A stretch of 64,000 bases of DNA from a virus: IMG/VR virus record IMGVR_UViG_3300027792_000011. One strand, 5' to 3'. The position numbers and the translations under genes were made by a program. Below the pieces are notes generated by a model. It saw nothing but the letters and a program-made list of their open reading frames with translations. It made no database searches and was not told the DNA's origin. Of this stretch, positions 14,461-63,595 are shown in pieces (positions within the stretch are counted from its first letter, which is position 1; each line of letters begins with the position of its first letter).

Positions 14461-14490
14461 AGCTAAGAAAATGCCGCAGAGGTTGCGGCA
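14461..14490 (-). terminator. Cassette terminator: hairpin + TTTTCTTAGCT
   Basis: TGCCGCA/TGCGGCA stem directly after the stop at 14495. Confidence 0.7.
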
Positions 14491-14494
14491 AGAA

Positions 14495-14956
14495 CTACTT
14501 GGGTGGGCACTCCAGATAGATTTTGATCTCACCATGCCCATCGGGCATGATGTACCAGTCGCAGAAGTCATGCTTGCCCCTGGTGAAGGTCTTCACCAAA
14601 CCAGGTTTGGCTCCATGAGCTGCTGCTTCGATCAAATCCATCAGAGCCTGTCCGTCCCCGATAGGAAGTCTCCTATTTCTAGGATTGTCCTCTTCGGTTG
14701 GGAACATCATTCGGTAGGAGACTTGGAGTACACGTCCGTGTTTCTGCACTTCAGCGATCTCACGGTGTGCACTCCATAGTCCACCAGGTGTGAGCTGGAA
14801 CTGATCTTGGTATAGCAGACTGATCTGCTTCATCAGATCATCCAACCAGGAAAAGTCGGCAGAGCCCATGATAGTGTCTAGTATGAGCCGAAACCTGCTG
14901 TTCGGACAGTACTGACACCACTCTCGAAACCGATCGTCACTCTTCTTGGTCCACAT
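14495..14956 (-). CDS. Hypothetical cassette protein
   Basis: 3' part of track ORF 14495..15154; start uncertain. Confidence 0.55.
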   Translation of the reverse strand: MWTKKSDDRFREWCQYCPNSRFRLILDTIMGSADFSWLDDLMKQISLLYQDQFQLTPGGLWSAHREIAEVQKHGRVLQVSYRMMFPTEEDNPRNRRLPIGDGQALMDLIEAAAHGAKPGLVKTFTRGKHDFCDWYIMPDGHGEIKIYLECPPK

Positions 14957-15119
14957 GCAGCTATCACGAGGAACCAGGTGAGTGTCACCAGATCTTATCC
15001 TGGCTTTCGGTTCCGATACGCTCTTTGGAGATCTATTGAGATCGCGAGGACAAGCAACCCAAAGACCCTTTTGATCCAGTACCCACTGGCTGAGTCCTTG
15101 GGATGCCTTCCTCGGTTGA

Positions 15120-15998
15120 TCAACTCCAGATGTCTTCTCCCTCGGCACTCTCATCCTCCTCTGACGAGTCCGAGAACCAATACTTCTCCAGGAGGTCTCT
15201 TGCCTTCTCGTCCTTCACGAGGGCAATAGCACATTCTGGGTGCTCGCCATCTCGGAGGTCTATGCCATCCTGCCATCCTGGTTTGCTGTCAAAGCCAGCC
15301 AGTTTGACGGTGTCGTTGGCAGCGCGCTTCAACAGCGCGATGGGGAGTCCTGTTGGACCCTTCCGGACTGGGGCCAAATTGAACCCCATTGCGCTTATGA
15401 TCTCACGCTGCTCTTTGGTGGTGTCACACCCGTCGGCGACACCCTTGATGAGAGTGTATGTCTGTTTGCCGACGGGATCGCTGGCGAAGAAGCATGGTTG
15501 CCACTCGCTCCAGTCTTTGCCATTCGGTGGTACCAGGCCAAACATGGCCCAGTTTCCTCGAGTGTTCAGAACCATCCCCACACCACATGTGTCGATGGCT
15601 GTGCTCCTCCCGGAGCGGCCAGTGATGGTCACCTTTGGTCCGCGAAGGTGGCCATTGTAGATCATAAGAAGATCAAGCCGTAGCTTGACCTTCACCCCGT
15701 CCACGATCTTCATCCATGAGACACCCTGGGTACGGGTCATCTCTTGGAACATCGAATCGGCCATTGCCACGTGTGCAGTCTTGACCATGGCGACTTTCGA
15801 TCCGAGCACGCCTCCCTCTACCTTTGCTCTCTTCAGGATTTCAGTAAGTCGTCTTCCCCCGTACAGTTTGAGAAGCCGGCGCGACTCACTCTCGGAGAAC
15901 CCCATGCTGATCGCTTTCGCGACCAGCTTTTCCTCTCGTGAGTCCTTTTCTTGCTCCTGCTCCTGCTGTACCACGTTCTCAGCTACTGCTGCTGCCAT
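15120..15998 (-). CDS. Hypothetical cassette protein
   Basis: 292 aa, RBS GGAGGAG, acidic C-terminus, TATAAG promoter upstream. Confidence 0.75.
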   Translation of the reverse strand: MAAAVAENVVQQEQEQEKDSREEKLVAKAISMGFSESESRRLLKLYGGRRLTEILKRAKVEGGVLGSKVAMVKTAHVAMADSMFQEMTRTQGVSWMKIVDGVKVKLRLDLLMIYNGHLRGPKVTITGRSGRSTAIDTCGVGMVLNTRGNWAMFGLVPPNGKDWSEWQPCFFASDPVGKQTYTLIKGVADGCDTTKEQREIISAMGFNLAPVRKGPTGLPIALLKRAANDTVKLAGFDSKPGWQDGIDLRDGEHPECAIALVKDEKARDLLEKYWFSDSSEEDESAEGEDIWS

Positions 15999-16057
15999 AA
16001 CCGATCTCCTCCATCTCCCTAGTCCATATCTAGGAAACTGATCACTGCCACATTTGT

Positions 16058-16086
16058 CTTATAGCGTTGGCACAGATCAATTTGTA
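16058..16086 (-). promoter_or_regulatory. Cassette-type promoter
   Basis: TACAAA-17-TATAAG. Confidence 0.55.
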
Positions 16087-16102
16087 GCGTATATTCGAGC
16101 AG

Positions 16103-17920
16103 ATGCAGTCAGAACAGATCAGCGATTACAAGGATTTTTACGTAGATGCCAAGCGAGCTATTGATACTGGAGTCTTCAACCAAGAGGTTGAGGACGAGAT
16201 CGATCGTATCATGGCCGAGCTCAATGAAGAGGATGAGGAGATAGCTGAGCTATTCGAGGATGAGGATCAGATACTCACGTCCAAGAGACAGATAGAAGTA
16301 CTCCCATCAGACTTCACAGAGTTTGCCATACGCATTCCGGTATCTGGTGATCTGGAGCCTTTCAGCTTCGATCACAGAAGGTACCTCAAGCCGATCTATG
16401 ATACACCAGCAAGAAGGACACTTCTGAAGTGCGCTCGTCAGACCGAGAAGTCGACATCACTTGGTAACAAGAGTCTTGCTTACTGTGGGATCAACTACGG
16501 CTTCAAGGTTCTCTATGTCAGTGCTACGGCAACGCAGGCACAGGTCTTCAGCGTTGATCGTATCAAGGAGCCATTGGACATCTCTCCAGAGATGAGCTTC
16601 CTGATCGATACCAAACTGAATCAGAACGTTCTATTCAAACAGTTCAAGAATCGATCCCAGATCAGGATCAGGTACGCATTCCTCAATGCAGACCGAACTC
16701 GTGGCATTCCAGCGGACATGATTCTGATCGATGAGATACAGGACATCTTCTTCAGCAACGTACCTGTCATAGAACAGTGCGCATCCCACTCACAGTGGAA
16801 GATCTACTGCTACTCTGGAACACCCAAGAGCCTAGACAACACGATCGAGGTGTACTGGTCCAACTACTCTACTCAGAACGAGTGGATCGTTCCATGTGAA
16901 CGGCATGGTGTTCCGAGCAAACCGAACACCTGGTTCTGGAACATTCTTGGGATCAAGAACATTGGCAGGAAAGGATTGATCTGTGCCAAGTGCGGTCAGC
17001 CTATTGATCCAATGCACCCTATGGCTAACTGGGCATCCAGGCAACCAGTTACGGAAGAGAATGCGCATAGGGTAACGTTCGAGGGCTACCGTATCTCACA
17101 GTTGATGGTCCCTTGGGTAAACTGGCAAGACGACATCATCATGGCGCTCGAGCGCTATGGCACAGCTAAGTTCCACAACGAGGTACTTGGTCTGTCATAC
17201 GATTCAGGTATTCGTCCGCTAACCAGAACACAAGTAAGATCATGCTGCAACAAGAACATCCGGCTTAGCTATGTCGTTGAGAATGCACAGAAGTGCTACG
17301 GTGGGGTATTCGTTGGCGTGGACTGGGGGACCGGAGAGGCTGATTCCTATTCTGTGATCGCATTGGGTGGGTATATGGGTGGGGAGTTCCAGATCTTCTT
17401 CGTACACAGATTCATTGGTGAAGATCTAGAACCACAACGACAGCTACAGATGATCTCGCAACTGCTAGTGTCGGTTCAGTTCAAGCTCATTGGTGCGGAC
17501 TACGGTGGTGGCTTTGATCGCAATGACTTCTTGCAGAGAAACTTTGGACCACTGCGTCTAGCCAAGTACCAGTATGCTGGATCACCTAAAGCGAAGGTGA
17601 AGTGGCAGCCCAAACTAGGCAGGTTCATCCTCCACCGTACTGAGGTCATGAGCGACATCTTCAACGCGATCAAGTACAAGAAGATAGCACTGCCCAACTG
17701 GGAAGACTTCTCATCTCCGTACGCAGACGACATGCTCAACATCTTCAGCGAGTACAATGATCAGCTAAATATGATCCAGTACAAACTGAGCCCTGGAAAG
17801 AGTGACGATACTTTCCATGCGATCTTGTACTGCTTCCTCGTCTCAATGCTTGCAAAGCCCAGACCCGACATCATCATCCCTCTCCATGCCGGCCACGTTG
17901 ATTTCCGTAGACCAGGATGA
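16103..17920 (+). CDS. terL: Terminase large subunit
   Basis: Walker A-like KCARQTEKST, Walker B ILIDEIQD, motif SGTP, nuclease GVDWG and C-terminal DDTFHA. Confidence 0.9.
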   Translation: MQSEQISDYKDFYVDAKRAIDTGVFNQEVEDEIDRIMAELNEEDEEIAELFEDEDQILTSKRQIEVLPSDFTEFAIRIPVSGDLEPFSFDHRRYLKPIYDTPARRTLLKCARQTEKSTSLGNKSLAYCGINYGFKVLYVSATATQAQVFSVDRIKEPLDISPEMSFLIDTKLNQNVLFKQFKNRSQIRIRYAFLNADRTRGIPADMILIDEIQDIFFSNVPVIEQCASHSQWKIYCYSGTPKSLDNTIEVYWSNYSTQNEWIVPCERHGVPSKPNTWFWNILGIKNIGRKGLICAKCGQPIDPMHPMANWASRQPVTEENAHRVTFEGYRISQLMVPWVNWQDDIIMALERYGTAKFHNEVLGLSYDSGIRPLTRTQVRSCCNKNIRLSYVVENAQKCYGGVFVGVDWGTGEADSYSVIALGGYMGGEFQIFFVHRFIGEDLEPQRQLQMISQLLVSVQFKLIGADYGGGFDRNDFLQRNFGPLRLAKYQYAGSPKAKVKWQPKLGRFILHRTEVMSDIFNAIKYKKIALPNWEDFSSPYADDMLNIFSEYNDQLNMIQYKLSPGKSDDTFHAILYCFLVSMLAKPRPDIIIPLHAGHVDFRRPG

Positions 17921-17970
17921 TCAGCTAAGGAAAGGAGCCGAGAGAGGTAGGATCCCGGTTGGGTTCTCGG

Positions 17971-18312
17971 CTAGAGATCGATGCAGATAGCACCGGCTTC
18001 GGCCTGCCTTATGAGAGGAAGTGCCCATCCGGAGATGTACTCTACGCAGATGTACTGAGCATCCAGGTGGCAATCGGCGGATATTACCTCTTCCGGCGTT
18101 TCGAGGTAGTAGGCCACATCCAGTTTTCCGTCGTGCATCACTCTGATCGTGAAGCACCCGTTCGCACCTCTACGTCCCAAGAGCTGACAACTCTTGGAAC
18201 GGATTGGGCGAAGACGCCACCCCCGCTTACAGGGGTCTGTCTCTGCGGTGTGCCCACTTCCGGCCCACATAAACGCCGGTATCGTCGTGTCTACCTTGAA
18301 CGTTTTCAGCAT
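17971..18312 (-). CDS. Hypothetical cassette protein
   Basis: AGAAAGGA RBS and own promoter; hairpin + TTAGCT downstream (17923). Confidence 0.75.
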   Translation of the reverse strand: MLKTFKVDTTIPAFMWAGSGHTAETDPCKRGWRLRPIRSKSCQLLGRRGANGCFTIRVMHDGKLDVAYYLETPEEVISADCHLDAQYICVEYISGWALPLIRQAEAGAICIDL

Positions 18313-18319
18313 AACTGCC

Positions 18320-18382
18320 TTCCTTTCTACTGATCTTATATACTGATCTAAGTGGGAATTTCTATGATCAGCTAAGGAAATT
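18320..18382 (-). repeat. Conserved cassette junction (terminator tail, AGCT, promoter AGAAAT-17-TATAAG, RBS)
   Basis: Near-identical to 61728-61790 (first 31 nt identical). Confidence 0.9.
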
Positions 18383-18397
18383 TGCCTAGAAGTTAGG

Positions 18398-18643
18398 CTA
18401 GGTGGGACTATTGTAAAACTTTTCCATTTCTTCGATTACGGCGAGTTCTTCTTGAAATGTCAGACAGTGTTTCAAACTACCATATAGTGCGTATCCTGGT
18501 CTGTATATCAATGCAACTTGTCTGCTGCCATGGGAGTTGTTGACTAGCAAGCTGGCGCCTCCGTCTATTTGCTTGAACTCAGGTCTCAATCCAAAGCCGC
18601 AGATTCTTGAGCACCTCTTCATGATTGTATGAAAGGGTGTCAT
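18398..18643 (-). CDS. Hypothetical cassette protein
   Basis: AGAAAGGA RBS; hairpin + TTAGCT downstream. Confidence 0.7.
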   Translation of the reverse strand: MTPFHTIMKRCSRICGFGLRPEFKQIDGGASLLVNNSHGSRQVALIYRPGYALYGSLKHCLTFQEELAVIEEMEKFYNSPT

Positions 18644-18656
18644 AGTACTTTCCTTT

Positions 18657-18767
18657 CTATTGATCTGCAGAACGCTTCTTGAAGTACCGTACTACCCTCC
18701 ATGGGATAGACGGAATGATTATGGCCTCTAACAAGTCCAGAATACATTCGATGATCTTTTGCATCAT
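18657..18767 (-). CDS. 36-aa peptide MMQKIIECILDLLEAIIIPSIPWRVVRYFKKRSADQ (not in track)
   Basis: AGAAAGGAG RBS directly downstream of the 18788 promoter. Confidence 0.6.
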   Translation of the reverse strand: MMQKIIECILDLLEAIIIPSIPWRVVRYFKKRSADQ

Positions 18768-18787
18768 CGATTCTCCTTTCTACTGAT

Positions 18788-18816
18788 CTTATATACTAGA
18801 TCAGCTCTATATTTTA
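18788..18816 (-). promoter_or_regulatory. Cassette-type promoter
   Basis: TAAAAT-17-TATAAG. Confidence 0.75.
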
Positions 18817-18946
18817 CCATGACCAGGTAATGAAGAGAGCCGATCTTTTGATCGACTCCCTTCCGGACTCTCGTTGGAGTGCGGTGAGTAGGCGCTGGCC
18901 AGGCGCGGGTCAGGGGAGTAGGCCACTGTCTTCTCCCCTCCCAACT

Positions 18947-19417
18947 CTACTCGGCCTCGGCCTCAGCAGCCTCGTCCTTCTTCGTCGTCTTCTTCTCGGG
19001 CTTCTTCTTCGTCGTCTTCTCGGCCTCGGGCATTGGAACGCCCTGGGACCGTAGATACGCCTGCCCGAACTTGAGCGCCTCTTTGACCACGTCCGCCACC
19101 GCCTGCTGATTGCGGATGGCATCGAGTGTCGCCTGCACCTCCTCCAACACCTCGTTGCCCATCTCGCAGAGGCGCCCCTCACGCTGATGGCACACCGCTG
19201 TGCCCCGAGCGAGGCCGACGGCCACGCCCGATGCGGCGCCGATCGCCACGTTCAGACCGGTGCTCCCAACCCCGAACGCCTGCTCGATCAGGATGCCGCC
19301 GGCGGCGCCCATTGCGCCAGTCTCGACGGCTTCGGTTGAGACCTCGATCCAATTGTTACGGAGAGTCGAGCCGATGCTGGTCTCGAACCGCGCTTCCTTC
19401 TTCTTTTTCTTAGCCAT
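18947..19417 (-). CDS. Cassette protein with Gly-zipper hydrophobic hairpin and K-rich ends
   Basis: GGAGG RBS before MAKKKKKE. GAMGAAGG..GAASGVAVGLA. Visibly GC-richer than its neighbours. Confidence 0.7.
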   Translation of the reverse strand: MAKKKKKEARFETSIGSTLRNNWIEVSTEAVETGAMGAAGGILIEQAFGVGSTGLNVAIGAASGVAVGLARGTAVCHQREGRLCEMGNEVLEEVQATLDAIRNQQAVADVVKEALKFGQAYLRSQGVPMPEAEKTTKKKPEKKTTKKDEAAEAEAE

Positions 19418-19469
19418 GACATGCACCTCCCGATACCGGGTAAGATTGATTTCTTTCCGGTTCAATGAT

Positions 19470-19498
19470 CTTATATACAGATCAATGGCTGGATTTTC
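19470..19498 (-). promoter_or_regulatory. Cassette-type promoter
   Basis: GAAAAT-17-TATAAG. Confidence 0.75.
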
Positions 19499-19501
19499 AG
19501 T

Positions 19502-20242
19502 TTAGGTGATCTGGAGGTGCCCTTTACGGCCTGTACTCTTCAACTGCTTGGCTAATTGATCGAAGATCTCTATATCAGAGGCAGCCATCCTAGCTAGAAG
19601 CTTTCTGGACGGTCCAAGCTGGGCTGATTTCTCTACGAACAGTACTGCGATCGTAGACAGGTTCTTCCTGCCGTAGTGGAGTAGATCACGAATACGTTGC
19701 AGATTCAGATCAGTCCCTAGGTTTCTGTTCTCAGCTACGTAACGTGTCATGTCTATGCACAGTCGGTAGAATGTACTCCAGCTATGATCTACGTTCATCA
19801 TCTCGTTGAGCCGATCGATCTCCACCTCTGTGATCTTCATGAAGACTTCGGCGTACTTCAGCATCTCTTCGACAACCCAAGCATCCTGACCTGAAGCCAG
19901 CATGATGTTCTCGTACAGATTGTACAGATCAGTATCGTCCATGTGGATGAATCTGGATGCAGCTTGCCCACTCACCTCCAGGATCAGATTTATAGCGTTT
20001 TCGAGACGGTGAACCTTCTGTTCCAGGAAGAGCAAACGTCTAATCAACTCTCCCGGTTTCATTTCGCCGGCGATATTCAGTCTATGAATCTCTGCAAGAT
20101 CTTCTTGGTGGACCAGGATGTTGTCTCCATCAGCTCTCCAACGCATGAGACCCTGATCCAAAAGGTCATGCACTTTTTTAGGTGTACACCCAAGAATTTT
20201 CGCAGCTTGAGACACTAGAATGTACTTGACATCACTTCCCAT
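19502..20242 (-). CDS. HTH (excisionase/MerR-like) DNA-binding protein
   Basis: ILVSQAAKILGCTPKKVHDLLDQGLM at the N-terminus, followed by a coiled coil. Confidence 0.7.
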   Translation of the reverse strand: MGSDVKYILVSQAAKILGCTPKKVHDLLDQGLMRWRADGDNILVHQEDLAEIHRLNIAGEMKPGELIRRLLFLEQKVHRLENAINLILEVSGQAASRFIHMDDTDLYNLYENIMLASGQDAWVVEEMLKYAEVFMKITEVEIDRLNEMMNVDHSWSTFYRLCIDMTRYVAENRNLGTDLNLQRIRDLLHYGRKNLSTIAVLFVEKSAQLGPSRKLLARMAASDIEIFDQLAKQLKSTGRKGHLQIT

Positions 20243-20314
20243 TAGATCTCTCGTGTGCTACGTTGATGGTATCAGAGACACGGCCGGACGTGTATCTCGA
20301 GAAGGAGACCGGCC

Positions 20315-21223
20315 ATGACGAGGGATCGACATATGATAGGAGCACAGGCAGCGCACTTCACGATGGCTGAAGGATCTCATCGTGAGGTACAGCCGGAGCG
20401 GCTCCAAATGCTTGGCAAGCGGGCTAGTGCCATGTTCGTCGAGCAGGGGATCCCGCTGACCGATGCTGTAGTTCGTGTTCTCTCAGAGGAAAGTGGTCTG
20501 AATCGCAATCATGTCCAACGTGTGACTGAATTTGCGAACAACTACGCCTTTGAGGGATTGTTCAACAAGGAAGCCAGTGATCATAGAGTCATTGACTTCG
20601 GAGAGCATGGACCAGCAGATACGGCAGAGGTTCTGAAGGAGCTCAATTCAGTGGGTCGAGAGCAGATCAAAACGGCTGCAAGGCAGCCTACGATCAGCCG
20701 GCGCTTTGTTCCAGGACAAGATAGCGCACAAGAGAGCTACGCTCTTACGAAGACCGCTGCCGCTGCACCAGCTTACCAGTATGTGGATCCGTATCGGGAG
20801 CTGGGAGAGCTGCGAGACGACGTGAAGCGAGCAAAAGAAGAAATGCTCGAGAAGGTCAGTCAGGCTGGTCTGGAGTACGAAGCAGCTTGCAGATCGCTGT
20901 ATGACCTGACCAAACAGGCGGTGCTGGGTGGATACTCTCCAGCAGATGTCACTGTTGCATTTCTGCAGACGGCCGTAGATCGGTCGCTGGTGAAGCTTGC
21001 TCTGAAAGAGATTGCACAGCGTATGGATCTGGATCAGATTCCGGCTGTGCCGATGACCAAGCAAGCTTCGGCTCGCCAGGTCAACCCAAAACACCCGCTC
21101 ATGGGGGCCTTCAGTGCCTTCACGAAGACGGCAGTAGACTACTTCGGCAAGATCAAAGCTGCTGAGGATCTCACGAAGCAGTACGGTGTTGTCGATCGAA
21201 AGCTGCGGGGTATGATCCAATGA
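20315..21223 (+). CDS. Putative head-associated protein (K-x-A motifs)
   Basis: NKEAS, IKTAA, TKTAAA, TKQASA; first gene of the head operon. Confidence 0.65.
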   Translation: MTRDRHMIGAQAAHFTMAEGSHREVQPERLQMLGKRASAMFVEQGIPLTDAVVRVLSEESGLNRNHVQRVTEFANNYAFEGLFNKEASDHRVIDFGEHGPADTAEVLKELNSVGREQIKTAARQPTISRRFVPGQDSAQESYALTKTAAAAPAYQYVDPYRELGELRDDVKRAKEEMLEKVSQAGLEYEAACRSLYDLTKQAVLGGYSPADVTVAFLQTAVDRSLVKLALKEIAQRMDLDQIPAVPMTKQASARQVNPKHPLMGAFSAFTKTAVDYFGKIKAAEDLTKQYGVVDRKLRGMIQ

Positions 21224-28717: not shown

Positions 28718-28751
28718 ATCCGCGCCTGCGCTGATCTTCGCGCTACTATTG

Positions 28752-28787
28752 AAGGGCGCGGCGTCAATCACCGGCGCCGCGCCCTTT
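28752..28787 (+). terminator. Intrinsic terminator after capsid gene
   Basis: AAGGGCGCGGCG/CGCCGCGCCCTT stem. Confidence 0.75.
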
Positions 28788-28806
28788 GCTTCTCAGGAGG
28801 TTGATC

Positions 28807-40706: not shown

Positions 40707-41870
40707 ATGGCAGTGTACTCTACCAGAGCTGAGTGGCTCGAAGCACAGTCTCGAGATCACTTCCACAAGTTGGGATCGTTGACGATCAAGACGACTGATG
40801 CCCACTTCATGGGCAAGGTAGCAGCTCATGAGTTCAGCCCAGAGATCACAAAGACTGCCAGCTTCAATGCCATTCTTCTGGACATCATAGAGCGCAGCAA
40901 GCCAAATGGACTGATCAAATCGGCAGCTCTGCACGCAACTCTCAACGATGAGGGCATCTTGAAAGTTGCTTCGGAGGATAGCTACTGGACCGGCGCACAG
41001 GCAGTACATCACCTTGATTTCCTTTCAGGTGTCTACGATATCAATCCGGATATGGCCTGGCGTTTTGCTGCGAATGCGGGGCTTGCCAAGGAAGCAGGCA
41101 TTGGAAACTTCGTTGGTGCTGCAGGCCGACTTTTGGGCAGAGGAGCTAAAGCTGGCGGAGGAGCACTACAAGCTGGAAGGCAGGCAGTAGGTCGAACAGC
41201 TAGTGGTGTGTCAAATTGGTGGAAAGGGACTGGTACCAAGTTCCTAGGTGATACAAGCCATTTGGGAACCAAGCCGTTGGGCCAAGCCTGGTCGCCGCTA
41301 CCAGCGGGACAGCATGCGATCAATCCGAATACTCTAGCAAGCAATCTTGCGAACAAGAATCCGTTTCAGCGGGCTGCTCAGCGAGTTAGCAATTGGTGGT
41401 CAGGTTCAGTTCACGGAACAGCTGGAATGCAGGGTCCTGGAATCAATCCATTGCGTAGAGCGGGTCAGAATATTGCCTATCAAGCCGAGCGTGGTTTTGA
41501 AGCAGGAAAGGCCGGAGCCCCCATTCTTCAGCGAGCTCCTAAGCCCGCAGCTGCAGCTGCAGAGCACGCCGCTCCAGCAGCTAGTCAGGGAGCAGGTGCA
41601 GCAGGCCATGCAGTGCCGGCCGCTCCTGAAGCAGCTGCGGGAGCTGCCGGTCAAGTAGCACCAAGACAAAGTGCTGGAAGAGAAGCCTGGGAGACCACCA
41701 AGGCAATTGGCCGGGGAGCACGTAACCTGGGCTATGCAGGTATCATAGGCGGAACTGTTCTTGGAGCAGCTGGACTATCAGCAGCAGGCAATCTAGTTCG
41801 TCCCAACCCCTCACCATACCAGTATGGAATGGGCGGCCCAACTCCCTGGATGTCCCCACAGCAGATGTAG
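40707..41870 (+). CDS. K-x-A polyprotein, Gly/Ala-rich
   Basis: GKVAA, TKTAS, IKSAA, LKVAS, AKEAG; repeated VSNWW; hydrophobic C-terminus. Confidence 0.6.
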   Translation: MAVYSTRAEWLEAQSRDHFHKLGSLTIKTTDAHFMGKVAAHEFSPEITKTASFNAILLDIIERSKPNGLIKSAALHATLNDEGILKVASEDSYWTGAQAVHHLDFLSGVYDINPDMAWRFAANAGLAKEAGIGNFVGAAGRLLGRGAKAGGGALQAGRQAVGRTASGVSNWWKGTGTKFLGDTSHLGTKPLGQAWSPLPAGQHAINPNTLASNLANKNPFQRAAQRVSNWWSGSVHGTAGMQGPGINPLRRAGQNIAYQAERGFEAGKAGAPILQRAPKPAAAAAEHAAPAASQGAGAAGHAVPAAPEAAAGAAGQVAPRQSAGREAWETTKAIGRGARNLGYAGIIGGTVLGAAGLSAAGNLVRPNPSPYQYGMGGPTPWMSPQQM

Positions 41871-41906
41871 AGCTAAGACAAAGAGCCACGGGTTTCCGTG
41901 ACTCTT
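41871..41906 (-). terminator. Cassette terminator + TTAGCT
   Basis: AAGAG.CACGG/CCGTG.CTCTT stem next to AGCTAA. Confidence 0.65.
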
Positions 41907-41929
41907 CGTCTCGTTGGAGTGGGGGAAGG

Positions 41930-42187
41930 CTACGCGCGTACGATCTTGCGTCCGATCTTGCGTTCCTTTGTCAGAGCATCCACTAGTCGCTGCTTCTTCA
42001 GCGGGGTCGCGTTGGGGGTGGGCGGCTCGACCACGATGGTCAGCACGCCGTCCTTGGTCAACGAGGAGAGGTGGTCGATGAGTTTGTCCACTCCGTCGGC
42101 CATTTGGCGGTGGATGCTCATGTACGCCTTTGCCACGTTGTTGAGAGCGTCCAACTCGGCCTTAGAAAACTCGAAACTGATGCGCAT
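41930..42187 (-). CDS. Hypothetical cassette protein
   Basis: AGAAAGGAG RBS; promoter GAAAAT-17-GATAAG at 42240-42268. Confidence 0.75.
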   Translation of the reverse strand: MRISFEFSKAELDALNNVAKAYMSIHRQMADGVDKLIDHLSSLTKDGVLTIVVEPPTPNATPLKKQRLVDALTKERKIGRKIVRA

Positions 42188-42320
42188 TGGTGACTCCTTT
42201 CTTTTTCAAGGGAGAACTAGGTTCTCCGTCACCATAATACTTATCCCATCTTATATGATCAGATTTTCGCTTTTAGAGCTAAGAAGAGCGCCCGAGAGGG
42301 CGTCTTCCGGAGGTGCTCGG

Positions 42321-42521
42321 CTAGTTGGCCGAGTTCACCTCCTTCATCAGGTCCTTGCTCACCAGGTTGGCCAGTGCGATGAGAGAATTGATCGTATCCG
42401 CTGCGTCTTGCCACTCGGAATCCGTTGGAGTTGAGTGGACCACCAACTTCTTTACGATCGTCTGAAGTTTCGCAACAGCCTGGAGCGACGTCTTGATCGT
42501 CTCTTCTTCTACTCGTGTCAT
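42321..42521 (-). CDS. Hypothetical cassette protein
   Basis: AAGGAGG RBS; promoter TGAAAT-17-GATAAG at 42576-42604; hairpin + TTAGCT at 42277. Confidence 0.75.
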   Translation of the reverse strand: MTRVEEETIKTSLQAVAKLQTIVKKLVVHSTPTDSEWQDAADTINSLIALANLVSKDLMKEVNSAN

Positions 42522-42666: not shown

Positions 42667-42688
42667 GAATACTTATCCCATGATTAGG

Positions 42689-43231
42689 CTAGGATTTTTT
42701 CTCCCACCACTTATCAAGACTGATGGTTCCAGGTATGGGAGACATGTCTACAAACGATCCAGGCATCTGATGGCGGGGTTCTTCTAGTCGATCTGGGAAC
42801 AGTTCCTCTAGCTCATCGTCATCGCTCTGTGCTGGTAGCTGAGGAGCTTTCTGCTTTGGTGCTCGAGCTCCACCGGTTCTCATGTGCTCGAGGGCTATGT
42901 CTGCTATGGCCTGTGGTGGTAGATCCTTGCTCAGGACGCCGAAGAACTTCTCCAGCTCCTCGGCCTCCCACAACTCAGGCTCATTGAGAGCGGAGATGGC
43001 AAACTCTTCTGGGGTAGTGCCATAGGTCTCCAGCAACTCATCTAGTGCTGGATCAGAAGAGGAGGGCTGCCGGGGCTCCTCCTCCGTCGAGGATAGAGAC
43101 GGAGTGATGGGTGTGAGGAACCCCGGCAGCGTAGACGGATCACATGGTTTGATATACTCCTGGATACGAGCCAGGTCGTCAAGAGGTGCTGCTGCTGAAG
43201 TCCAGAAGCTATTCAGTATCGGTGTCTTCAT
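42689..43231 (-). CDS. Acidic Pro-rich hypothetical protein
   Basis: ORF; start chosen at MKTPIL. Confidence 0.6.
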   Translation of the reverse strand: MKTPILNSFWTSAAAPLDDLARIQEYIKPCDPSTLPGFLTPITPSLSSTEEEPRQPSSSDPALDELLETYGTTPEEFAISALNEPELWEAEELEKFFGVLSKDLPPQAIADIALEHMRTGGARAPKQKAPQLPAQSDDDELEELFPDRLEEPRHQMPGSFVDMSPIPGTISLDKWWEKKS

Positions 43232-43460
43232 CTTTGTCCAGATCAGCAATGTTCTGGTACATCCACCATCGAGCATCACTGTCCTCAGATGCTACCACCT
43301 GAAGACGCAATCGGTGCGCTTCGATCAGTACTTTGACTACCTCACTGGCGCTCAGCTTTATTCCGTAGTCCTGTCGAAGTCGCAGCTGTTCTTGAAGTAG
43401 CAGCTGTTCTTGTTCCGGTGTGAACTGCCACTGTACTATCGTCTTCTTTTTCATCCTCAA
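43209..43460 (-). CDS. Hypothetical protein (possibly ribbon-helix-helix)
   Basis: Beta-helix-helix pattern (SASEVVKVLI). Confidence 0.45.
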   Translation of the reverse strand: MRMKKKTIVQWQFTPEQEQLLLQEQLRLRQDYGIKLSASEVVKVLIEAHRLRLQVVASEDSDARWWMYQNIADLDKDEDTDTE

Positions 43461-43555
43461 ACTCGAAGTGTACCCTCAATCTTGGTTGATCACCTTTCAA
43501 TCGACGTTGAGCGTATTCCAGTGCCAGCTCTGCCAACGTCGTGAAAAGATCCTCG

Positions 43556-44086
43556 CTAAAGTCCCTCTTCATACTTCCATTCCTCATATTCCGTTTTCAT
43601 CTTCTTCACCTCCTTCTGCGGAATGCCTAGCTCGAGCTCCTTAGATCTGTTGTTCAACATCACAAGCGCTGTGCTGTATTTGATCCCGTATCCAGTCAGT
43701 TGATGGGCTCGAGCTACGACATTTTCTGCGTTCATCAACTTCGGGAACATTGCCCACTCTGCTTGGATGCATACACTTTCGTAGTGTGCTCTCCACTTTG
43801 CGTTGATCAGGTAGCGTACGGCATATAGAAGATTCCACTGCATGACGTGAGTCAACTCGTGGAACATGTGAGGGGTCATATGGCTGTTCCAGGTCCATGC
43901 TGGACAGTCGTAGATCGTATGCCCTATGGTGGTACCATAGTCGGTGAGGAACTTCTGAATGTTAGTGATCTTCAAGGCGTTAGTGATCTTCAAGAAGATA
44001 TTGATGGTTCTCATGAACCAAGATCTTTGCTTGTCGACTAGTTTGATCTTAGCCACGTTCTTATGAAAGTACGGGAGAAAGTTCAT
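43556..44086 (-). CDS. HExxH zincin-like protein
   Basis: MFHELTHVMQW with a downstream YE; start uncertain; GATAAG promoter at 44192-44220. Confidence 0.6.
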   Translation of the reverse strand: MNFLPYFHKNVAKIKLVDKQRSWFMRTINIFLKITNALKITNIQKFLTDYGTTIGHTIYDCPAWTWNSHMTPHMFHELTHVMQWNLLYAVRYLINAKWRAHYESVCIQAEWAMFPKLMNAENVVARAHQLTGYGIKYSTALVMLNNRSKELELGIPQKEVKKMKTEYEEWKYEEGL

Positions 44087-44195
44087 GTCCACTCCGATCC
44101 TAATATATGAGTAAAAACGATTCGGCTTTTCCGCCTCAACCGCGACATCATGTCCCATCGGTTTACTCAGCCTTGTGGTACCGCCAGAACACTTA

Positions 44196-44414
44196 TCACA
44201 CTTTCTGATCGAAATTTTTGCGGGATCTAATGTCCTCGAAAGACAGTCTACTCTCGTTATCTTTGATGTGTTCCCCCGCACTGATCAGCACTTCAGCTAG
44301 TAAGAAGCATTGATCAGCTCCATGTAGGACAAGTCCAGTGTCTGCATCTCCTGGCCTTCCGGTGATTACCTTCAAGATCGCAATGTTGCCCATCACCTTC
44401 ACACGATCTTTCAT
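44196..44414 (-). CDS. Hypothetical protein
   Basis: 72-aa ORF with a GGGGGT RBS-like site. Confidence 0.5.
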   Translation of the reverse strand: MKDRVKVMGNIAILKVITGRPGDADTGLVLHGADQCFLLAEVLISAGEHIKDNESRLSFEDIRSRKNFDQKV

Positions 44415-47853: not shown

Positions 47854-47899
47854 CTTATATACACGATCTATCGTCTTTTTTCACTTATCTGGGTATAAG
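47854..47899. promoter_or_regulatory. Overlapping divergent promoters
   Basis: Minus-strand TATAAG at 47854-47859; plus-strand GGTATAAG at 47892-47899. Confidence 0.6.
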
Positions 47900-55456: not shown

Positions 55457-55681
55457 ATGATCCATAAGTACTGCTGCGACAACGTACTTCCTCTGAGCGA
55501 TACGCCTGATCAGGCAATAGAGAAAGCCTTGGATCTCGGCAATAGATCAGAGTTGCCAAGTACTGTTCGCCTATACCAGTTCGAGTCGATAGACGGCGAC
55601 AACTGGAAGCTGTACCGAATCTCGGAGGTCCAGGACATCAACGTGAAAGAGTGGTTGGCTAAGAAAGGAGATACCAGATGA
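55457..55681 (+). CDS. Hypothetical protein
   Basis: GGAGG RBS. Confidence 0.6.
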   Translation: MIHKYCCDNVLPLSDTPDQAIEKALDLGNRSELPSTVRLYQFESIDGDNWKLYRISEVQDINVKEWLAKKGDTR

Positions 55682-56115
55682 GAATGAGAAAGAAGCTGAA
55701 CCTATTGAACCTGCAGGCATTCGTTGCGTACATGTACGCTGATCCTGAACACTGTTTGATCGTTGCAGCTCGAGATTATGAGCACGCACGTGGGGTTGCT
55801 GCGGAATTTCTGGGCTACTTGGCAGATGCGATCATAGTGCGTAAGACAGCGCAGAGACACATCAGACGAATGGAGACTAGCGGCGTAGCCTGGCAAGTGA
55901 CGACGCGAGGTCACACTCCGCCACGATACGACTGGCGTAGGCTTCATGCGAAATGGGGAATACTCAACGAAAGGGAGAATGGGGTCTCTCGACTGAGAAA
56001 GAAGATCGCTACTGGATTGCTGAAAGAAGCTAGTGTGCAGATGGCAACCTTCTTCGGCAAGTGGAAGTTTCCTATTCCATACTACCCGGAGCATGTCGAT
56101 AAGGGTGCCAAATGA
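55678..56115 (+). CDS. Hypothetical protein, paralog 1
   Basis: Shares a ~70-aa domain with 56112..56486. Confidence 0.7.
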   Translation: MRMRKKLNLLNLQAFVAYMYADPEHCLIVAARDYEHARGVAAEFLGYLADAIIVRKTAQRHIRRMETSGVAWQVTTRGHTPPRYDWRRLHAKWGILNERENGVSRLRKKIATGLLKEASVQMATFFGKWKFPIPYYPEHVDKGAK

Positions 56116-56486
56116 AACCTAGGATCGAGCTCACAGAAGAATTGAACCTGCAGGCGTTCATTGCGTACATGAACGATGATCTTGAACACTCCGTGATCGT
56201 TGCGGCACATGATAACGTTCACGCACGTGAGATAGCTGCGGAGTTCATGGATTGTCCATTCGCTAGGGTAGTAGTTCACAAGACAGCACAGAGGCATGTC
56301 AGGCGAATGGAGACTAGCGGCGTGGCCTGGCGGGTAGATACTCCACGATACTCGCGATACAAAATGGTGGAGCGGATCGAGTTTCTTAGACAACGGTTGA
56401 TGATCGATTTCAATGTCGACTATGCTGCTCTGGAGCATCGAGTGATACTCGGTATGATGTGCCCCGGCATGTCAACAAAGGTGTAA
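56112..56486 (+). CDS. Hypothetical protein, paralog 2
   Basis: LNLQAF.AYM..KTAQRH.RRMETSGVAW. Confidence 0.7.
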   Translation: MKPRIELTEELNLQAFIAYMNDDLEHSVIVAAHDNVHAREIAAEFMDCPFARVVVHKTAQRHVRRMETSGVAWRVDTPRYSRYKMVERIEFLRQRLMIDFNVDYAALEHRVILGMMCPGMSTKV

Positions 56487-56487
56487 G

Positions 56488-56847
56488 ATGAAACCTAGGA
56501 TCGAGCTCACAGAAGATCGGCATACAGGAATGTACGCCATTGTTTGGATCGTTGATGAGGATGAGGGTGCGTACATCGGAGACTTCTGGTCCAAGAACAA
56601 AGACATCGTTGAGGTGTCGATGAATGATCGGGAAGAGTACGATGTGTGGAAGACCGAGAAGGTAGCCTTCCAGTTCAACCCTGACGCAATCAATCCATTC
56701 CGTTGGGATTCAAAGAGCGTGGCTAGTGCCGCACTTCGTGCGTGTAGGGCGGCACTGAAAGCGGCTGATAAGGATCGTCCACTGCCAGATTGGGCGGTGA
56801 AGGCCCTGTCTGAAGGGTGGAAGCAGCCGAAAGGATGGAAGCCGTAA
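56488..56847 (+). CDS. Hypothetical protein
   Basis: Same first 9 codons as 56112..56486. Confidence 0.7.
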   Translation: MKPRIELTEDRHTGMYAIVWIVDEDEGAYIGDFWSKNKDIVEVSMNDREEYDVWKTEKVAFQFNPDAINPFRWDSKSVASAALRACRAALKAADKDRPLPDWAVKALSEGWKQPKGWKP

Positions 56848-60750: not shown

Positions 60751-60850
60751 AACGTATACCCACCTATCCAGGGGCCTCGAGTTCTTCGAGCGCCCTTTCA
60801 TTACGTAGTCATGATCAGCTAAGGGAAATGGCACAGAAGTGTGCCTGGGG

Positions 60851-61432
60851 TTAGCGTGCGATGAAGTGAGGTTCGCGACAATGGTAGCAGTTCGCTTTTG
60901 CCACTGCTGCCGCGATGGCATCGGTGAAACATTTGATTGATTCTGGAAGGGTTTCGTCATAGTACCCCTTCCAGATCGTTTTTTCCACGATTTCAAGTGT
61001 CAAGTCTGGGTGTAGGTGACAGCTGCAGCCAATGATCTGAATCCAGTCTTCACACGCTCTCACTTCCACTACCATGATCGTATCGAAGGCAGAAACAGGA
61101 ACTGAGAAAAGGGCATGTATACCGTTCGATAGGTGTCCACTACGAGGAATGTGATACGGATGAATGGGGAGACCATCCGGGTAGCACATCACTGTTGCGT
61201 CCCCGGAGTTGGACATACCACCACCGTATTCACGGCAGTTGATGGCGATGCCCATCTTGTAGTCCTTCAATTCCGGTGGGGATGTGTACACTACACGATA
61301 GTCATCCGTATCGTTGTGCTTCGGTAGTTCGACGATCAAACCACCGTGCACGAGCTTAGTGGAAATGCCAGCCTTAGCCAGCATTTCAGCCAATGCAAGA
61401 TCTTCCCCAAATACTTTGGCTACGAGATGCAT
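60851..61432 (-). CDS. Cassette protein with C-terminal CYHC..H motif
   Basis: Promoter AGAAAT-17-TATAAG (61481-61509); hairpin + TTAGCT (60817). Confidence 0.75.
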   Translation of the reverse strand: MHLVAKVFGEDLALAEMLAKAGISTKLVHGGLIVELPKHNDTDDYRVVYTSPPELKDYKMGIAINCREYGGGMSNSGDATVMCYPDGLPIHPYHIPRSGHLSNGIHALFSVPVSAFDTIMVVEVRACEDWIQIIGCSCHLHPDLTLEIVEKTIWKGYYDETLPESIKCFTDAIAAAVAKANCYHCREPHFIAR

Positions 61433-61541
61433 TCTCTTTGCCTTGTCCTTTGAGCGAGTAGGGATCTCTCACTCATAATCCTTATATACTGATCTATGCC
61501 GTAATTTCTATGATCAGCTAAGGAATGAACGGAAGGTGGGA

Positions 61542-61721
61542 CTAGATGGGGATGAGGACATTGATGGGGCCGAAGGCAAACTGGTAGTAGCATCCAGGCA
61601 TGCCACTTTCCAGCTGCCTAAAACTGCTAGGGGCGGGAAGAACCCAGACGTGGACCGGCCTTGGCTCTTGCAACCTGATGAGCAGGCTGTAGAGCCGATC
61701 GCTATCAACTACAAGTGTCAT
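61542..61721 (-). CDS. 59-aa cassette protein
   Basis: AGAAAGGA RBS; own promoter. Confidence 0.65.
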   Translation of the reverse strand: MTLVVDSDRLYSLLIRLQEPRPVHVWVLPAPSSFRQLESGMPGCYYQFAFGPINVLIPI

Positions 61722-61727
61722 ATGTGT

Positions 61728-61790
61728 TTCCTTTCTACTGATCTTATATACTGATCTATACATGGATTTCTGTGATCAGCTAAGGAAATT
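61728..61790 (-). repeat. Conserved cassette junction
   Basis: Near-identical to 18320-18382; partial copy at 61480-61525. Confidence 0.9.
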
Positions 61791-61816
61791 GGCTCGAAGT
61801 GAGCCTAGGTAGGGAT

Positions 61817-62059
61817 CTAGCGGAGACAGATACAATCTGCTCCGCCATCATCAGGCGTGCACCAACAATACCTGGCCCCCACATCAGGGGGCCAGCCCTC
61901 CTGGTATTTCAACTGACCTCTCTCGTCGACCCCAGCACAGAACAGCTCTGTGCCTGCCGGGGTAGTTCGTCCCCTGATAGCCCAGTAGCCCCCTCCGGTT
62001 GCTGGGACGATCAGCCCGTCGACCCAATAAGATGACGGGCGCGTCGGGAACGGTTTCAT
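61817..62059 (-). CDS. Cys-containing cassette protein
   Basis: GGGGGA RBS; UUCG hairpin + TTAGCT downstream. Confidence 0.6.
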   Translation of the reverse strand: MKPFPTRPSSYWVDGLIVPATGGGYWAIRGRTTPAGTELFCAGVDERGQLKYQEGWPPDVGARYCWCTPDDGGADCICLR

Positions 62060-62104
62060 GACTTCCCCCCGACATTGTAATCATCCCACTTACCAAAGTT
62101 TGCT

Positions 62105-62377
62105 TCACTCATTCTTGAATCCTTCTGTAAGGGCAAGTCCACGACGCACGAGCCGATCCAAATAACCCAATGTTGACGGTGGTACGTTGAGCAGCTCGTT
62201 ACAAGGAGGACCGCACGATTGCCCTCCCTGGTGAATTCGATAAGCACGGACCTCTTCTAGATCTCGCTTGAGCACAACGAACAGGTTCCTGATGACGTGG
62301 TGCGTTGCCCGCTCGCATGCCATAGCCCATATTTCTGCTGGAGTTTCCTCACAATCTATACTGTTATTGTTATTCAA
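62105..62377 (-). CDS. Hypothetical protein
   Basis: GGAGG + TTG start in the frame of track ORF 62105..62521. Confidence 0.45.
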   Translation of the reverse strand: MNNNNSIDCEETPAEIWAMACERATHHVIRNLFVVLKRDLEEVRAYRIHQGGQSCGPPCNELLNVPPSTLGYLDRLVRRGLALTEGFKNE

Positions 62378-62708
62378 GTTTCCTCCATGCCCCTTTCTCG
62401 GGCTCGGCCTCAAACGATGGCACACCATCCCACGTCGCACCGCAACGACAACATTGACCACCGTTACCATCGGAGCCTTGCCAGAAGTTAGCTTCGGTCC
62501 TGCAAGAAAAACACACGCCATCGATCCAAGTCAGGTCGGTACCTTTTCCAACGTGGTGAATATCGATGACGTCCTGAAACGTCTCGTACGTTTGGAAGCT
62601 TGGATGCTGCCCCAGCCATCGCAGAACGGCTGCACCATCTCGGAATAGCACACCCGCTGCGACGGTATTACCATCGCGGATCAGAGAAAATCTCAAGGAA
62701 TCGGTCAT
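62370..62708 (-). CDS. Phage hypothetical protein + Zn ribbon
   Basis: VAAGVLFRDG..LRW..IH; CFSC..CCRC; GAGGAG RBS. Confidence 0.65.
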   Translation of the reverse strand: MTDSLRFSLIRDGNTVAAGVLFRDGAAVLRWLGQHPSFQTYETFQDVIDIHHVGKGTDLTWIDGVCFSCRTEANFWQGSDGNGGQCCRCGATWDGVPSFEAEPEKGAWRKLE

Positions 62709-62772
62709 TGAAATAGCTCTCCTCTAACTACTACTAACACCTGGCCACATGTATTTTAGTCCGCCCCTTTCG

Positions 62773-63099
62773 TCAACTCCGGCACACCACAAATCCGTAC
62801 TTCCCACCGACATTACTCATGTAGGTGTCCTCCTCTGCGGGATCGATGAAGAAGGTTTTGGGGCACGGCAGTCCCTTCCAGAGCCACCTACCGCACTTAC
62901 CTGGAGTCTCATCGGGGCAGTGTATCCTATCCCCAAACGATCCCGTTGGGCATACCTCGTTGCCCCTATCCCTACTCCAAAGCACGGCGTCTCCGAAAGC
63001 AGCCCCTACTAGCTGCTCACTAGTCGGCCGCGATCCACATTCCGGGCAGGATCTAGATATTGGTCGGAATCCACAATCACAGTTCCATCTATTGTTCAT
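62773..63099 (-). CDS. Cys-rich cassette protein
   Basis: AGAAAGGA RBS; TATAAG at 63123; CDC..CPEC. Confidence 0.65.
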   Translation of the reverse strand: MNNRWNCDCGFRPISRSCPECGSRPTSEQLVGAAFGDAVLWSRDRGNEVCPTGSFGDRIHCPDETPGKCGRWLWKGLPCPKTFFIDPAEEDTYMSNVGGKYGFVVCRS

Positions 63100-63188
63100 C
63101 TTCGTTATTCCTTTCTACTATTCTTATACCAGTGATCGAGGTCGTAATGTTACGTAGCTAAGGAAATTGGGGAGAACTCCCCTAGAAT

Positions 63189-63443
63189 CTAGCGATCTTT
63201 CGCATTCGGGGGCGGGCGGAACGTGGCGCTTCCGTGCAGGAAGGCTTGCGTCAGCGGGATGTCGACGAGGGTGATGGAGAAGTGATCACCGGTTTCGGTG
63301 ACATTTCCGAGGCAGGAGGTAGTTACTGCGAAGCCGTCTGGTACTGTTTTGACTTCGAGCAGACCTAGCGACGGCGTAGCTAGGCAGAAGTTCAGCGCTG
63401 CTTCATAGGTCACAAACTTGGCCACGGTTTTTGGTTTCGGCAT
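63189..63443 (-). CDS. 84-aa cassette protein
   Basis: AGAAAGGA RBS; promoter GAAAAT-17-TATAAG (63493-63521); hairpin + TTAGCT (63156). Confidence 0.7.
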   Translation of the reverse strand: MPKPKTVAKFVTYEAALNFCLATPSLGLLEVKTVPDGFAVTTSCLGNVTETGDHFSITLVDIPLTQAFLHGSATFRPPPNAKDR

Positions 63444-63595
63444 TGGTCTCAGTCCTTTCTTTTTCGAGGTTAGACCTTTCCCGATCGTAATTCTTATATA
63501 CAGACTGTGATCAGTATTTTCACATAACGAGCTAAAAGGAGGGCTTTTGAAGACCCTCCGGAGACCTGGAACTAGGATTCCAGGCTCCAGCTTGC

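Follow-up and report, generated by a model that had tools for sequence, protein, structure and literature searches.

The stretch of viral DNA analysed here (IMG/VR record IMGVR_UViG_3300027792_000011; 64,000 nucleotides (nt), hereafter the window) carries small genes in minus-strand islands scattered between positions 14461 and 63560, and the question it raises is why these genes are separated by junctions of nearly one composition: a hairpin, a pyrimidine tract and the word TTAGCT, then an A-rich -35 element, a spacer and a TATAAG box. An earlier interpretation, made from the letters alone (the sequence-only reading), proposed an integron-like or recombination-driven cassette system for anti-defence cargo and, as an alternative, a termination signal for a phage RNA polymerase (RNAP). 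Based on the motif statistics, profile searches and genome comparisons presented here, we favour, with reasonable though not high confidence, a family-wide terminator-promoter punctuation of one transcription class that doubles as patches of homology for gene shuffling, in the manner of the promoter-early stem-loops (PeSLs) of T4-type phages.

The window corresponds to positions 15796-79795 of contig C1 (173,992 bp) of the phage under study, G000. This contig has a 55-bp terminal overlap and a G+C content (GC) of 0.51, compared with 0.59 in the remaining contigs of its assembly, and thus represents a complete phage genome binned with a bacterial metagenome-assembled genome (MAG). It is ~94% coding, with a predominance of plus-strand genes broken up by short minus-strand islands. 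Three whole relatives were compared with it: G001 (178.5 kb, GC 0.62, terminase 85% identical), G002 (167.8 kb, GC 0.585, terminase 67% identical) and G003 (177.8 kb, GC 0.57, terminase 64% identical); partial loci, including L053 (terminase 58% identical, GC 0.64), L006 and L052, were compared as well. Phages of the family measure roughly 150-200 kb, and the terminase has more than 1400 relatives at E <= 1e-50; scanning metagenome and genome contigs for the terminase yielded just L043 and L047 in addition.

Putative promoter and terminator signals

Each of the 13 [TG]ATAAG boxes that the sequence-only reading had located on the minus strand is present there. The spacer, described as exactly 17 nt, has this length at most sites and ranges over 16-18 nt at a few. 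The restriction of the units to the minus strand holds for the promoter pattern AAAW-N17-KATAAG, which has 11 matches in the window, all on that strand (0.24 +/- 0.43 in dinucleotide shuffles), but the motifs also occur on the plus strand (e.g. TATAAG at 47894), outside the cassettes and across the remainder of the 174-kb genome. Eight copies of TATATAAG are found in C1, again all on the minus strand. TATAAG ranks first or second among the intergenic-enriched hexamers of G000 and its relatives: 25 of its 40 copies are intergenic in G000, as are all 26 in G001, on both strands of a genome in which only 5.8% of the sequence is intergenic. A position matrix built on 100 sites from four genomes describes one architecture on both strands, namely (G/C)AAAW, 17-18 nt and G-n-TATAAG; a short conserved leader and a ribosome-binding site (RBS) follow. 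Many of these sites are orthologous across genomes and lie ahead of conserved genes. The structural (late) operons are without TATAAG and have other upstream motifs, conserved in four genomes. A full-text literature search for TATAAG phage promoters returned nothing relevant.

The eleven AGCTAA sites, the plus-strand form of TTAGCT, are likewise confirmed, including the two said to lie at core-gene stops: the terminase TGA at 17918-17920 is followed by AGCTAA at 17923, and the other copy comes directly after the stop codon of ORF (open reading frame) 40707..41870. The order of hairpin, pyrimidines and TTAGCT is general, but the junction at 61516 has no hairpin. As a hexamer by itself, AGCTAA shows no excess in the window (27 copies against 21.5 expected); in C1, 19 of its 58 copies are intergenic, against 3.9 expected (z 7.9). 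TTAG[CA] follows 10 of the 27 intergenic hairpin-plus-pyrimidine tails and only 3 of the 293 coding ones, and the intergenic z scores of TTAGCT reach 8-12 in all four genomes. The terminator comprises a GC hairpin of 5-12 bp, a short pyrimidine tract and TTAGCT, which is often lengthened to TTAGCTGRTCAT and frequently to TTAGCTGRTYAT. The distance from hairpin to TTAGCT is 0-9 nt, and the hairpins fall at variable offsets in a TTAGCT-anchored alignment of 15 terminators. The tract is interrupted by C (UUUCCUU) before an invariant AGCU, and only two sites in 14000-20500 pass the classical rule of five T in eight. TTAGCT is kept in G001-G003 and L053 (GC 57-64%) although the stems have diverged; across relatives the loop NNTTC and the tail AATTCCTTAGCT or AATT(T)CCTTAGCT are also retained, and the palindromes TTAGCTAA and TTAGCTAGCTAA stand at bidirectional sites. 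The exact word TGATAGCTAAA, the reverse complement of a TTTAGCTATCA terminator tail, was not found in these phage genomes, and Rfam gave no match in the window or in L002. A conserved terminator after the putative capsid gene (28717-28807) has a hairpin and a T run, with no TTAGCT. The density of hairpins with pyrimidines and TTAGCT is 5.2 per 100 kb in the phage versus 0.06 in the co-binned bacterium, ~85 times lower in a MAG that may not be the host; the hairpins of that bacterium end in TTTTTT.

In four further relatives (terminase 58-85% identical, GC 57-64%), the enrichment of TATAAG and of the hairpin with TTAGCT between genes ranks with the strongest of any word, on both strands. Since the motifs are shared across relatives and flank conserved genes too, they constitute family-wide punctuation and are not private to the cassettes. 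The retention of TTAGCT in five phages with diverged stems, its palindromic form at bidirectional sites, its absence from the late-operon terminator and its rarity in the co-binned bacterium all suit a termination signal tied to phage transcription, the alternative put forward by the sequence-only reading, better than its integron-like proposal; TTAGCT would then be part of the termination signal itself.

Some candidate elements and minor features were noted near these signals. TTAGCT as an upstream promoter element was rejected, as some sites have it 3 nt from TATAAG and others ~35 nt away, and it is present at promoterless terminal junctions. Its strand bias in coding sequence (47 versus 11) was rejected as part of the signal and judged to be an effect of codon usage, presumably GCT-AAR on the coding strand. 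An 18-mer, TAGTCCCACCTTCCGTTC, which at 61527-61544 separates the stop codon of a cassette from the terminator tail, is identical in L053 (13042-13062; terminase 58%), which is only suggestive with ~0.1 matches expected by chance; its variant TAGTCCCACCTAG is found at 18396-18408. C-rich CCCACC repeats often lie 5' of the hairpins. Upstream motifs of the late genes, at 20243-20314 and 1380-1534 of the window and 10836-10936 of C1 (e.g. GTGCTACGTTGAT..TAGCAGA and GGTGGTAGACTGGAG), are candidates for a second promoter class.

Gene turnover between conserved junctions

The proposal that cassettes turn over by recombination, with breakpoints at the junctions, is backed by the comparison with relatives and agrees with the PeSL analogy on which it drew. 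The relatives concerned have terminases 58-85% identical to that of G000, and the breakpoints are resolved only to within a module. One series is found in island B, which spans the interval from the terminase stop to the gene of a helix-turn-helix (HTH) protein (19502-20242) and holds zero, one, two (three ORFs) or four extra cassettes or genes, depending on the phage. In L006 and G003, the B1-type gene is alone and its terminator tail (TTAsnTGGTCAT) holds the terminase stop codon. G000 has kept the old junction TTACCTGGTCATGG (~18819-18845) and has two added cassettes with three ORFs, each cassette ending in TTAGCTGATCAT. G002 has one extra ORF, the phage P0003 and L053 have more small genes than the three of G000, and G001 has a 471-nt insert without an obvious ORF at the same point. 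This insert corresponds to L002:11830-12300 (minus strand), exactly at the insertion point after the ancestral junction TTACATGGTCATGG; its predicted RNA fold has a z score of -3.18 against shuffles, Rfam gives no match, and it may be a non-coding cassette.

Comparable changes are seen in the other islands. In island A, G002 and G003 share a promoter-leader (22 nt, 91%) and a terminator (46 nt, 89%) around unrelated ORFs, and in G002 a 102-aa (amino acid) cassette lies between a pair of terminators with 98% identity over 49 nt. Homologs of the B3 protein occur in three contexts: island B of G000, the terminal island-A cassette of G003 (45% identity) and a run of seven co-oriented small genes on an ENA contig. 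In island C, G003 is without the distal cassette and G002 has only a promoter-terminator mini-unit, whereas G000 and G001 share C2 and C3; the C2 promoter of G000 resembles the C3 promoter of G001. Island D is conserved in position between G000 and G001 and entirely different in content; a border module of 54 nt is 87% identical in the two genomes, though the genes on both sides have no detectable homology. Within the window, the junctions described earlier as near-identical 43 kb apart (18320-18385 and 61728-61793) are indeed 88% identical over 66 nt in a repeat search, which also found five copies of ATGATCAGCTAAGGAAA. The cargo proteins are mutually unrelated, and the GC of the cassettes spans 42-64%, compared with 51 +/- 3.3% for all genes. 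Searching IMG/VR for the junction as an exact pattern returned only G001 plus two chance matches in the unrelated contigs L040 and L041.

In the mechanism that we favour, the promoter and terminator signals would make each small antisense unit transcriptionally self-contained, and such units would insulate the convergent late operons, which would explain why a TTAGCT terminator stands right at core-gene stop codons. As junctions of 60-100 nt recur around unrelated ORFs, they would also act as patches of homology, through which a general recombination system, represented by a RecA/UvsX-like gene at C1:171123-172391, could insert, delete and replace ORFs, mostly at the distal ends of islands. 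This would be the PeSL mode of modular shuffling, which needs no dedicated recombinase; homologous recombination, rather than illegitimate insertion, would move the ORFs. Profile searches are consistent with this picture: the tyrosine recombinase family PF00589 has 13 matches in the assembly and none on C1, and the serine recombinase family PF00239 has no match. HNH (PF01844) has no match on C1.

Several points weigh against this reading. The promoter and terminator functions that we infer rest on sequence logic. G000 is 100% identical across 21.8 kb (window 6103-27920) in four other public assemblies (JGI 3300009082, JGI 3300027762, SRR5468431 and SRR5468423): the population is clonal across samples, and these five assemblies offer no polymorphism over that span. 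No close relative with a clean, fresh indel was found, the nearest distinct genome being 85% identical in terminase. The breakpoints are accordingly old, and they do not distinguish homologous exchange from an illegitimate insertion that later came under selection for consensus signals. Between the near-twin junctions, spacers (variable 8-nt blocks) and stems (compensatory changes) differ, as expected of purifying selection on function and not of recent copying. On the side of transcription, sigma-dependent recognition typically goes with a bipartite -35/-10 promoter and a 17-nt spacer, which leaves some probability to the host holoenzyme or an undetected sigma-like factor, and the co-binned MAG may not be the host.

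Given this pattern in the near-twin junctions, a substantial minority of the probability stays with an explanation in which the motifs are transcription signals only. Without any role in mobility, they would mark a regulon; ORFs would arrive illegitimately at harmless convergent junctions, as in moron accretion, and would later gain consensus signals. The flanking of conserved as well as variable genes is what this explanation predicts, as are the functional constraint on the near-twin junctions, the uniformity of the five assemblies and the clustering of additions between a terminator and a convergent stop codon, where insertion is harmless. It accounts less well for the two G002 terminators around one cassette (98%, 49 nt), which are closer to each other than to their G003 ortholog, and for junction flavours that are specific to a genome, such as the 30-nt promoter-leader repeated identically in L053; both argue for copying or gene conversion rather than independent convergence. 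The conserved 54-nt linker with non-homologous genes on both sides is a further difficulty. Overall, we consider it unlikely that regulation is the whole explanation, and we retain punctuation that doubles as a substrate for shuffling.

A candidate reader of the signals

The signals are probably phage-specific, and we lean slightly towards a phage RNAP, rather than the host enzyme, as the one that would read them. The candidate reader is a single-polypeptide beta-beta' RNAP of 2053 aa encoded at 1535..7696 (plus strand), which matches the Pfam families RNA_pol_Rpb2_6 (2e-65), Rpb1_2 (6e-26) and Rpb1_5 (9e-25) and also Rpb1 domain 1. It is the sole RNAP gene on C1, with the only PF00562 match there, and a profile search found no Sigma70_r2 match on that contig. 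In relatives down to 54% terminase identity, a fused RNAP of 2052-2057 aa adjoins the virion genes, a few kb upstream of the terminase. A bolder version of this idea is that the RNAP is delivered with the virion and has TATAAG, with its A-rich -35, as a dedicated promoter and the hairpin-YYTTAGCT element as a sequence-marked terminator. Enzyme and signals would form a compact, orthogonal system of multisubunit type whose cis code is family-wide (>1400 terminase relatives) and whose junctions double as early-gene recombination linkers; we put it forward tentatively, as a possibility that falls short of being probable.

Two further features of the RNAP gene may be mentioned: a GNAT acetyltransferase gene lies directly downstream (7684-8451), and the RNAP homolog of L052 has 2416 aa with a LAGLIDADG_2 match, which suggests the insertion of an intein or homing endonuclease.

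If the sigma-A holoenzyme of an unusual host recognized the TATAAG sites as early promoters (relatives are binned with Chloroflexota/Anaerolineales), with ordinary intrinsic terminators and the phage RNAP reading the late genes, one would expect the bipartite layout, the 17-nt spacer and the G at -14, which resembles an extended -10. The location of the RNAP gene within the late virion block, behind an upstream motif other than TATAAG, agrees with such a division of labour, and one relative is binned with an Anaerolineales MAG. However, sigma-70-type promoters conserve the T at the end of the -10 element, whereas that of G000 ends in G; sigma-70-consensus sites are not enriched (4 versus 5.3 expected), and the consensus scan picks none of the TATAAG sites. 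Moreover, the same TATAAG and TTAGCT are found in phages of 51 to 64% GC, TATAAG is excluded from all G001 coding sequence, TATAAT is depleted in the phage, and the co-binned bacterium has few TTAGCT-tailed hairpins, as detailed above. Reading by the host is, in our view, an improbable but still serious competitor.

It is more doubtful still that TTAGCT(GRTCAT) has nothing to do with termination and is a binding or processing site, for instance for the HTH protein or an RNase, or a stop-codon insulator in several frames. The 12-mer does have stops in two frames per strand (TAG and TGA forward, TGA and TAA reverse), its extension GRTYAT often includes the stop codon of the convergent gene, and the HTH protein is conserved beside the array. 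Yet the motif is placed after a hairpin and a pyrimidine tract, in a strand-specific manner relative to the upstream gene, and stop-codon content leaves the invariant central GC unexplained. The integron-like reading, in which TTAGCT(GATCAT) beside a hairpin would be an attC-like core and a dedicated recombinase would move circular cassettes, has almost no credit left: arrays of small unrelated ORFs parted by hairpin-forming repeats with a short invariant core word, duplicated at both ends of the added cassettes, do recall those of integrons (attC, IntI), but the defining component is missing, as the 174-kb contig encodes neither a tyrosine nor a serine recombinase, and IntI, attI and Pc are all absent from G000; each cassette comes with a promoter of its own, the spacing between hairpin and core varies (0-9 nt, with one junction lacking the hairpin) instead of following the fixed R/L boxes and core crossover of attC, the same word ends conserved, syntenic and non-mobile genes and sits immediately upstream of plus-strand TATAAG boxes, and new units build up well away from any promoter-proximal site of the attI type.

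Relation to known systems

PeSLs are mobile regulatory cassettes of T4-type phages, in which ORFans are lost, gained and circularised through recombination between composites of roughly 100 bp (Arbiol et al. 2010, PMC2839356; Comeau et al. 2014, PMC4122927). The junctions of G000 are similar in being composites of stem-loop terminator and promoter, roughly 60-100 nt long, that recur next to unrelated ORFans where variable regions separate the core blocks, with ORFs inserted, deleted and replaced between conserved flanks; both systems lack a known dedicated recombinase, and the phage encodes a recombinase of the RecA family. G000 nevertheless belongs to an unrelated lineage with its own single-chain beta-beta' RNAP, its promoter is TATAAG with an A-rich -35 and not a sigma-70 consensus, its terminator has the invariant TTAGCT tail and its units are antisense to the late operons. 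Because the sigma-70-consensus scan skips the TATAAG sites, the G000 system works like the PeSLs and is not a member of the T4 element family. PeSLs are known to form mini-circles and to have promoter and terminator activity, whereas the G000 junctions are known from their sequence.

The cassettes also share features with the morons of lambdoid and other phages, reportedly described by Juhala et al. 2000 and discussed in PMC2839356, as they are autonomous promoter-gene-terminator units of atypical composition, accreted at intergenic sites within a conserved gene order. Morons are not known to have conserved flanking modules in common, whereas the flanks in G000 are repeated and follow a family-wide consensus.

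Cis codes of phage RNAPs include the T7 promoters and class I/II terminators, the hairpin promoters of the N4 vRNAP and the promoters of the phiKZ/AR9 multisubunit RNAPs (review PMC7598289). Like these, the consensus described here is phage-specific, excluded from coding sequence, conserved in relatives and distinct from host signals, and the RNAP gene is among the virion genes. It differs in its bipartite -35/-10 layout and in the one fused beta-beta' chain, where those systems have split subunits or an enzyme of the T7 type. The T7, N4, phiKZ and AR9 systems are not known to have hairpin terminators marked by a sequence word, as predicted for G000. The principle is thus known from PeSLs and morons; what is new is the cis code of TATAAG and a TTAGCT-tailed hairpin, together with its association, throughout a large family of uncultured phages, with a single-chain beta-beta' RNAP. 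The PeSL principle, by which a regulatory junction is also a recombination linker, would thereby extend to an unrelated and widespread phage family. The junctions would also supply promoter and terminator consensus sequences for an uncharacterised single-chain beta-beta' RNAP, whose specificity is testable with one protein and short templates; an invariant sequence word in the terminator would be out of the ordinary for a multisubunit-type RNAP.

Islands and cassettes in the window

The cassettes mark where this phage family keeps fast-evolving ORFan genes. All features below are on the minus strand unless stated otherwise and are given by rising coordinate. Island A has its terminator at 14461..14490 (hairpin TGCCGCA/TGCGGCA, tail TTTTC, TTAGCT), whose G001 ortholog (134031) keeps TTAGCT. 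Its two genes (219 aa and 292 aa; 14495..15998) are conserved in G001, L052 and L006, whereas G002 and G003 have the first gene only, and the proteins have no Pfam or PHROG match. The promoter (16058..16085), a TATAAG with a weak A-rich -35, has an orthologous site at 135642 in G001.

In island B, the TTAGCTGATCAT tail of the terminal terminator (17917..17970; repeat family D6) includes the reverse complement of the terminase stop codon. It is followed by the cargo of cassette B3 (17971..18312, 113 aa), the protein with homologs in another island of G003 and in the third context on the ENA contig. The composite junction at 18320..18400 (repeat family D3) consists of a hairpin (18384-18398), AAATTTCC, TTAGCTGATCAT, AGAAAT, a 17-nt spacer, TATAAG and the GATCAGTAGAAAGGA leader with RBS. 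Cassette B2 (18398..18767) encodes ORFs of 36 aa and 81 aa with a GC of 42-44% and is found in G000 only; its promoter and the relic of the ancestral junction TTACCTGGTCATGG, which abuts the terminase stop in relatives, occupy 18788..18845 (repeat family D6). Cassette B1 (18947..19496, promoter at 19470-19496) encodes a protein of 156 aa with Lys-rich ends and a Gly/Ala-rich core (GC 64%) and has a counterpart at this place in all relatives examined. The conserved HTH protein (19502..20242), the anchor of island B in every relative, matches Pfam HTH_17 below the cut-off (E 1.6e-4), and its L053 homolog matches PF12728.

The terminal terminator of island C (41871..41910) has its TTAGCT abutting the stop of the convergent tail-fibre-like ORF 40707..41870, as in G001 (162609). 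Cassettes C3 (85 aa) and C2 (66 aa) occupy 41930..42521, with a junction between them at 42240-42310; their G001 counterparts are syntenic and weakly similar, and G002 and G003 have none. The leaders of C3 (42180-42260) and C2 (42516-42600) feature a GGTGAC...GTCACC pairing around an internal hairpin and the RBS (GAAAAAGAAAGGAG), and G002 and G003 have structured leaders of a like kind (GTGGACTCGGG...). Such leaders may control translation or RNA stability. The segment 42576..42698 combines the C2 junction and promoter with a mini-unit running from promoter to terminator (42612-42698), at which the upstream gene also ends, and the G002 counterpart (132347-132390) ends in TTTTAGCT. In this mini-unit the promoter is directly followed by a hairpin and TTTTTTAGCT, with no ORF between. 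It either yields an RNA of about 55 nt or simply terminates the upstream gene, a promoter overlapping the terminator. The conserved part of the island (42689..44218) encodes proteins of 195, 76 and 200 aa in synteny with relatives, with a promoter upstream at 44192-44218. The 200-aa protein (43556-44158), conserved in G001 and G002, has an HExxH motif (HELTH) and no match in Pfam, PHROG or PDB sequences; it may be a novel metallopeptidase.

Between islands C and D, a divergent promoter pair (47854..47899, both strands) has an orthologous pair in G001 (168871/168906). Its minus-strand TATAAG (47854-47880) faces an ORF-free stretch, and the plus-strand TATAAG (47894-47899) stands at the head of 13 kb of small genes on the plus strand.

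The left border of island D is a convergent terminator module (60769..60847), of which 54 nt are 87% identical to positions 9353-9406 of G001. Next come the cargo of cassette D4 (60851..61432), an ORFan of 193 aa, a junction with TTAGCTGATCATAGAAAT and TATAAG and no hairpin (61466..61531; 67% to repeat family D3), and the 59-aa cargo of cassette D3 (61542..61721). The composite junction at 61728..61808 was identified by the repeat search as the near-twin of 18320-18400. Cassette D2 (61817..63099) comprises four ORFs and has small Cys-rich proteins; the product of 62370-62708 belongs to phrog_7499, of unknown function. The composite junction at 63123..63186 (hairpin GGGGA/TCCCC, AATTTCC, TTAGCT and promoter) precedes the D1 cargo of about 83 aa (63189..63440), and another at 63493..63560 (hairpin, TT, TTAGCT and a promoter with a structured leader) precedes cassette D0 (63596..63931). 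The D0 protein (111 aa) resembles Cas_csx3 below threshold (Pfam PF09620, E 5e-4, 20.3 bits versus a cut-off of 21). This is the only such similarity among twenty cargo proteins, which otherwise have no known-function match in Pfam, PHROG or PDB sequences, and the idea of anti-defence cargo finds no other support.

Other features of the genomes

GATC is ~3-fold over-represented in G000 (2137 copies versus 674 expected), G001 and G003, with a smaller excess in G002 (884 versus 615 expected) and a ~2-fold one in the co-binned bacterium; it recurs within promoter spacers and leaders. Many terminase homologs (P0004, P0013, P0018, P0022 and others) contain an intein with a LAGLIDADG endonuclease (~1030 aa). 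In L053, an IS605-type TnpB gene (OrfB_IS605/Cas12f-like) and a ribbon-helix-helix (RHH) gene are inserted just upstream of the terminase (8636-9993). Finally, two neighbouring plus-strand genes of the window (55678-56516) are tandem paralogs, with blocks of 80-88% DNA identity at a spacing of 376-437 nt.

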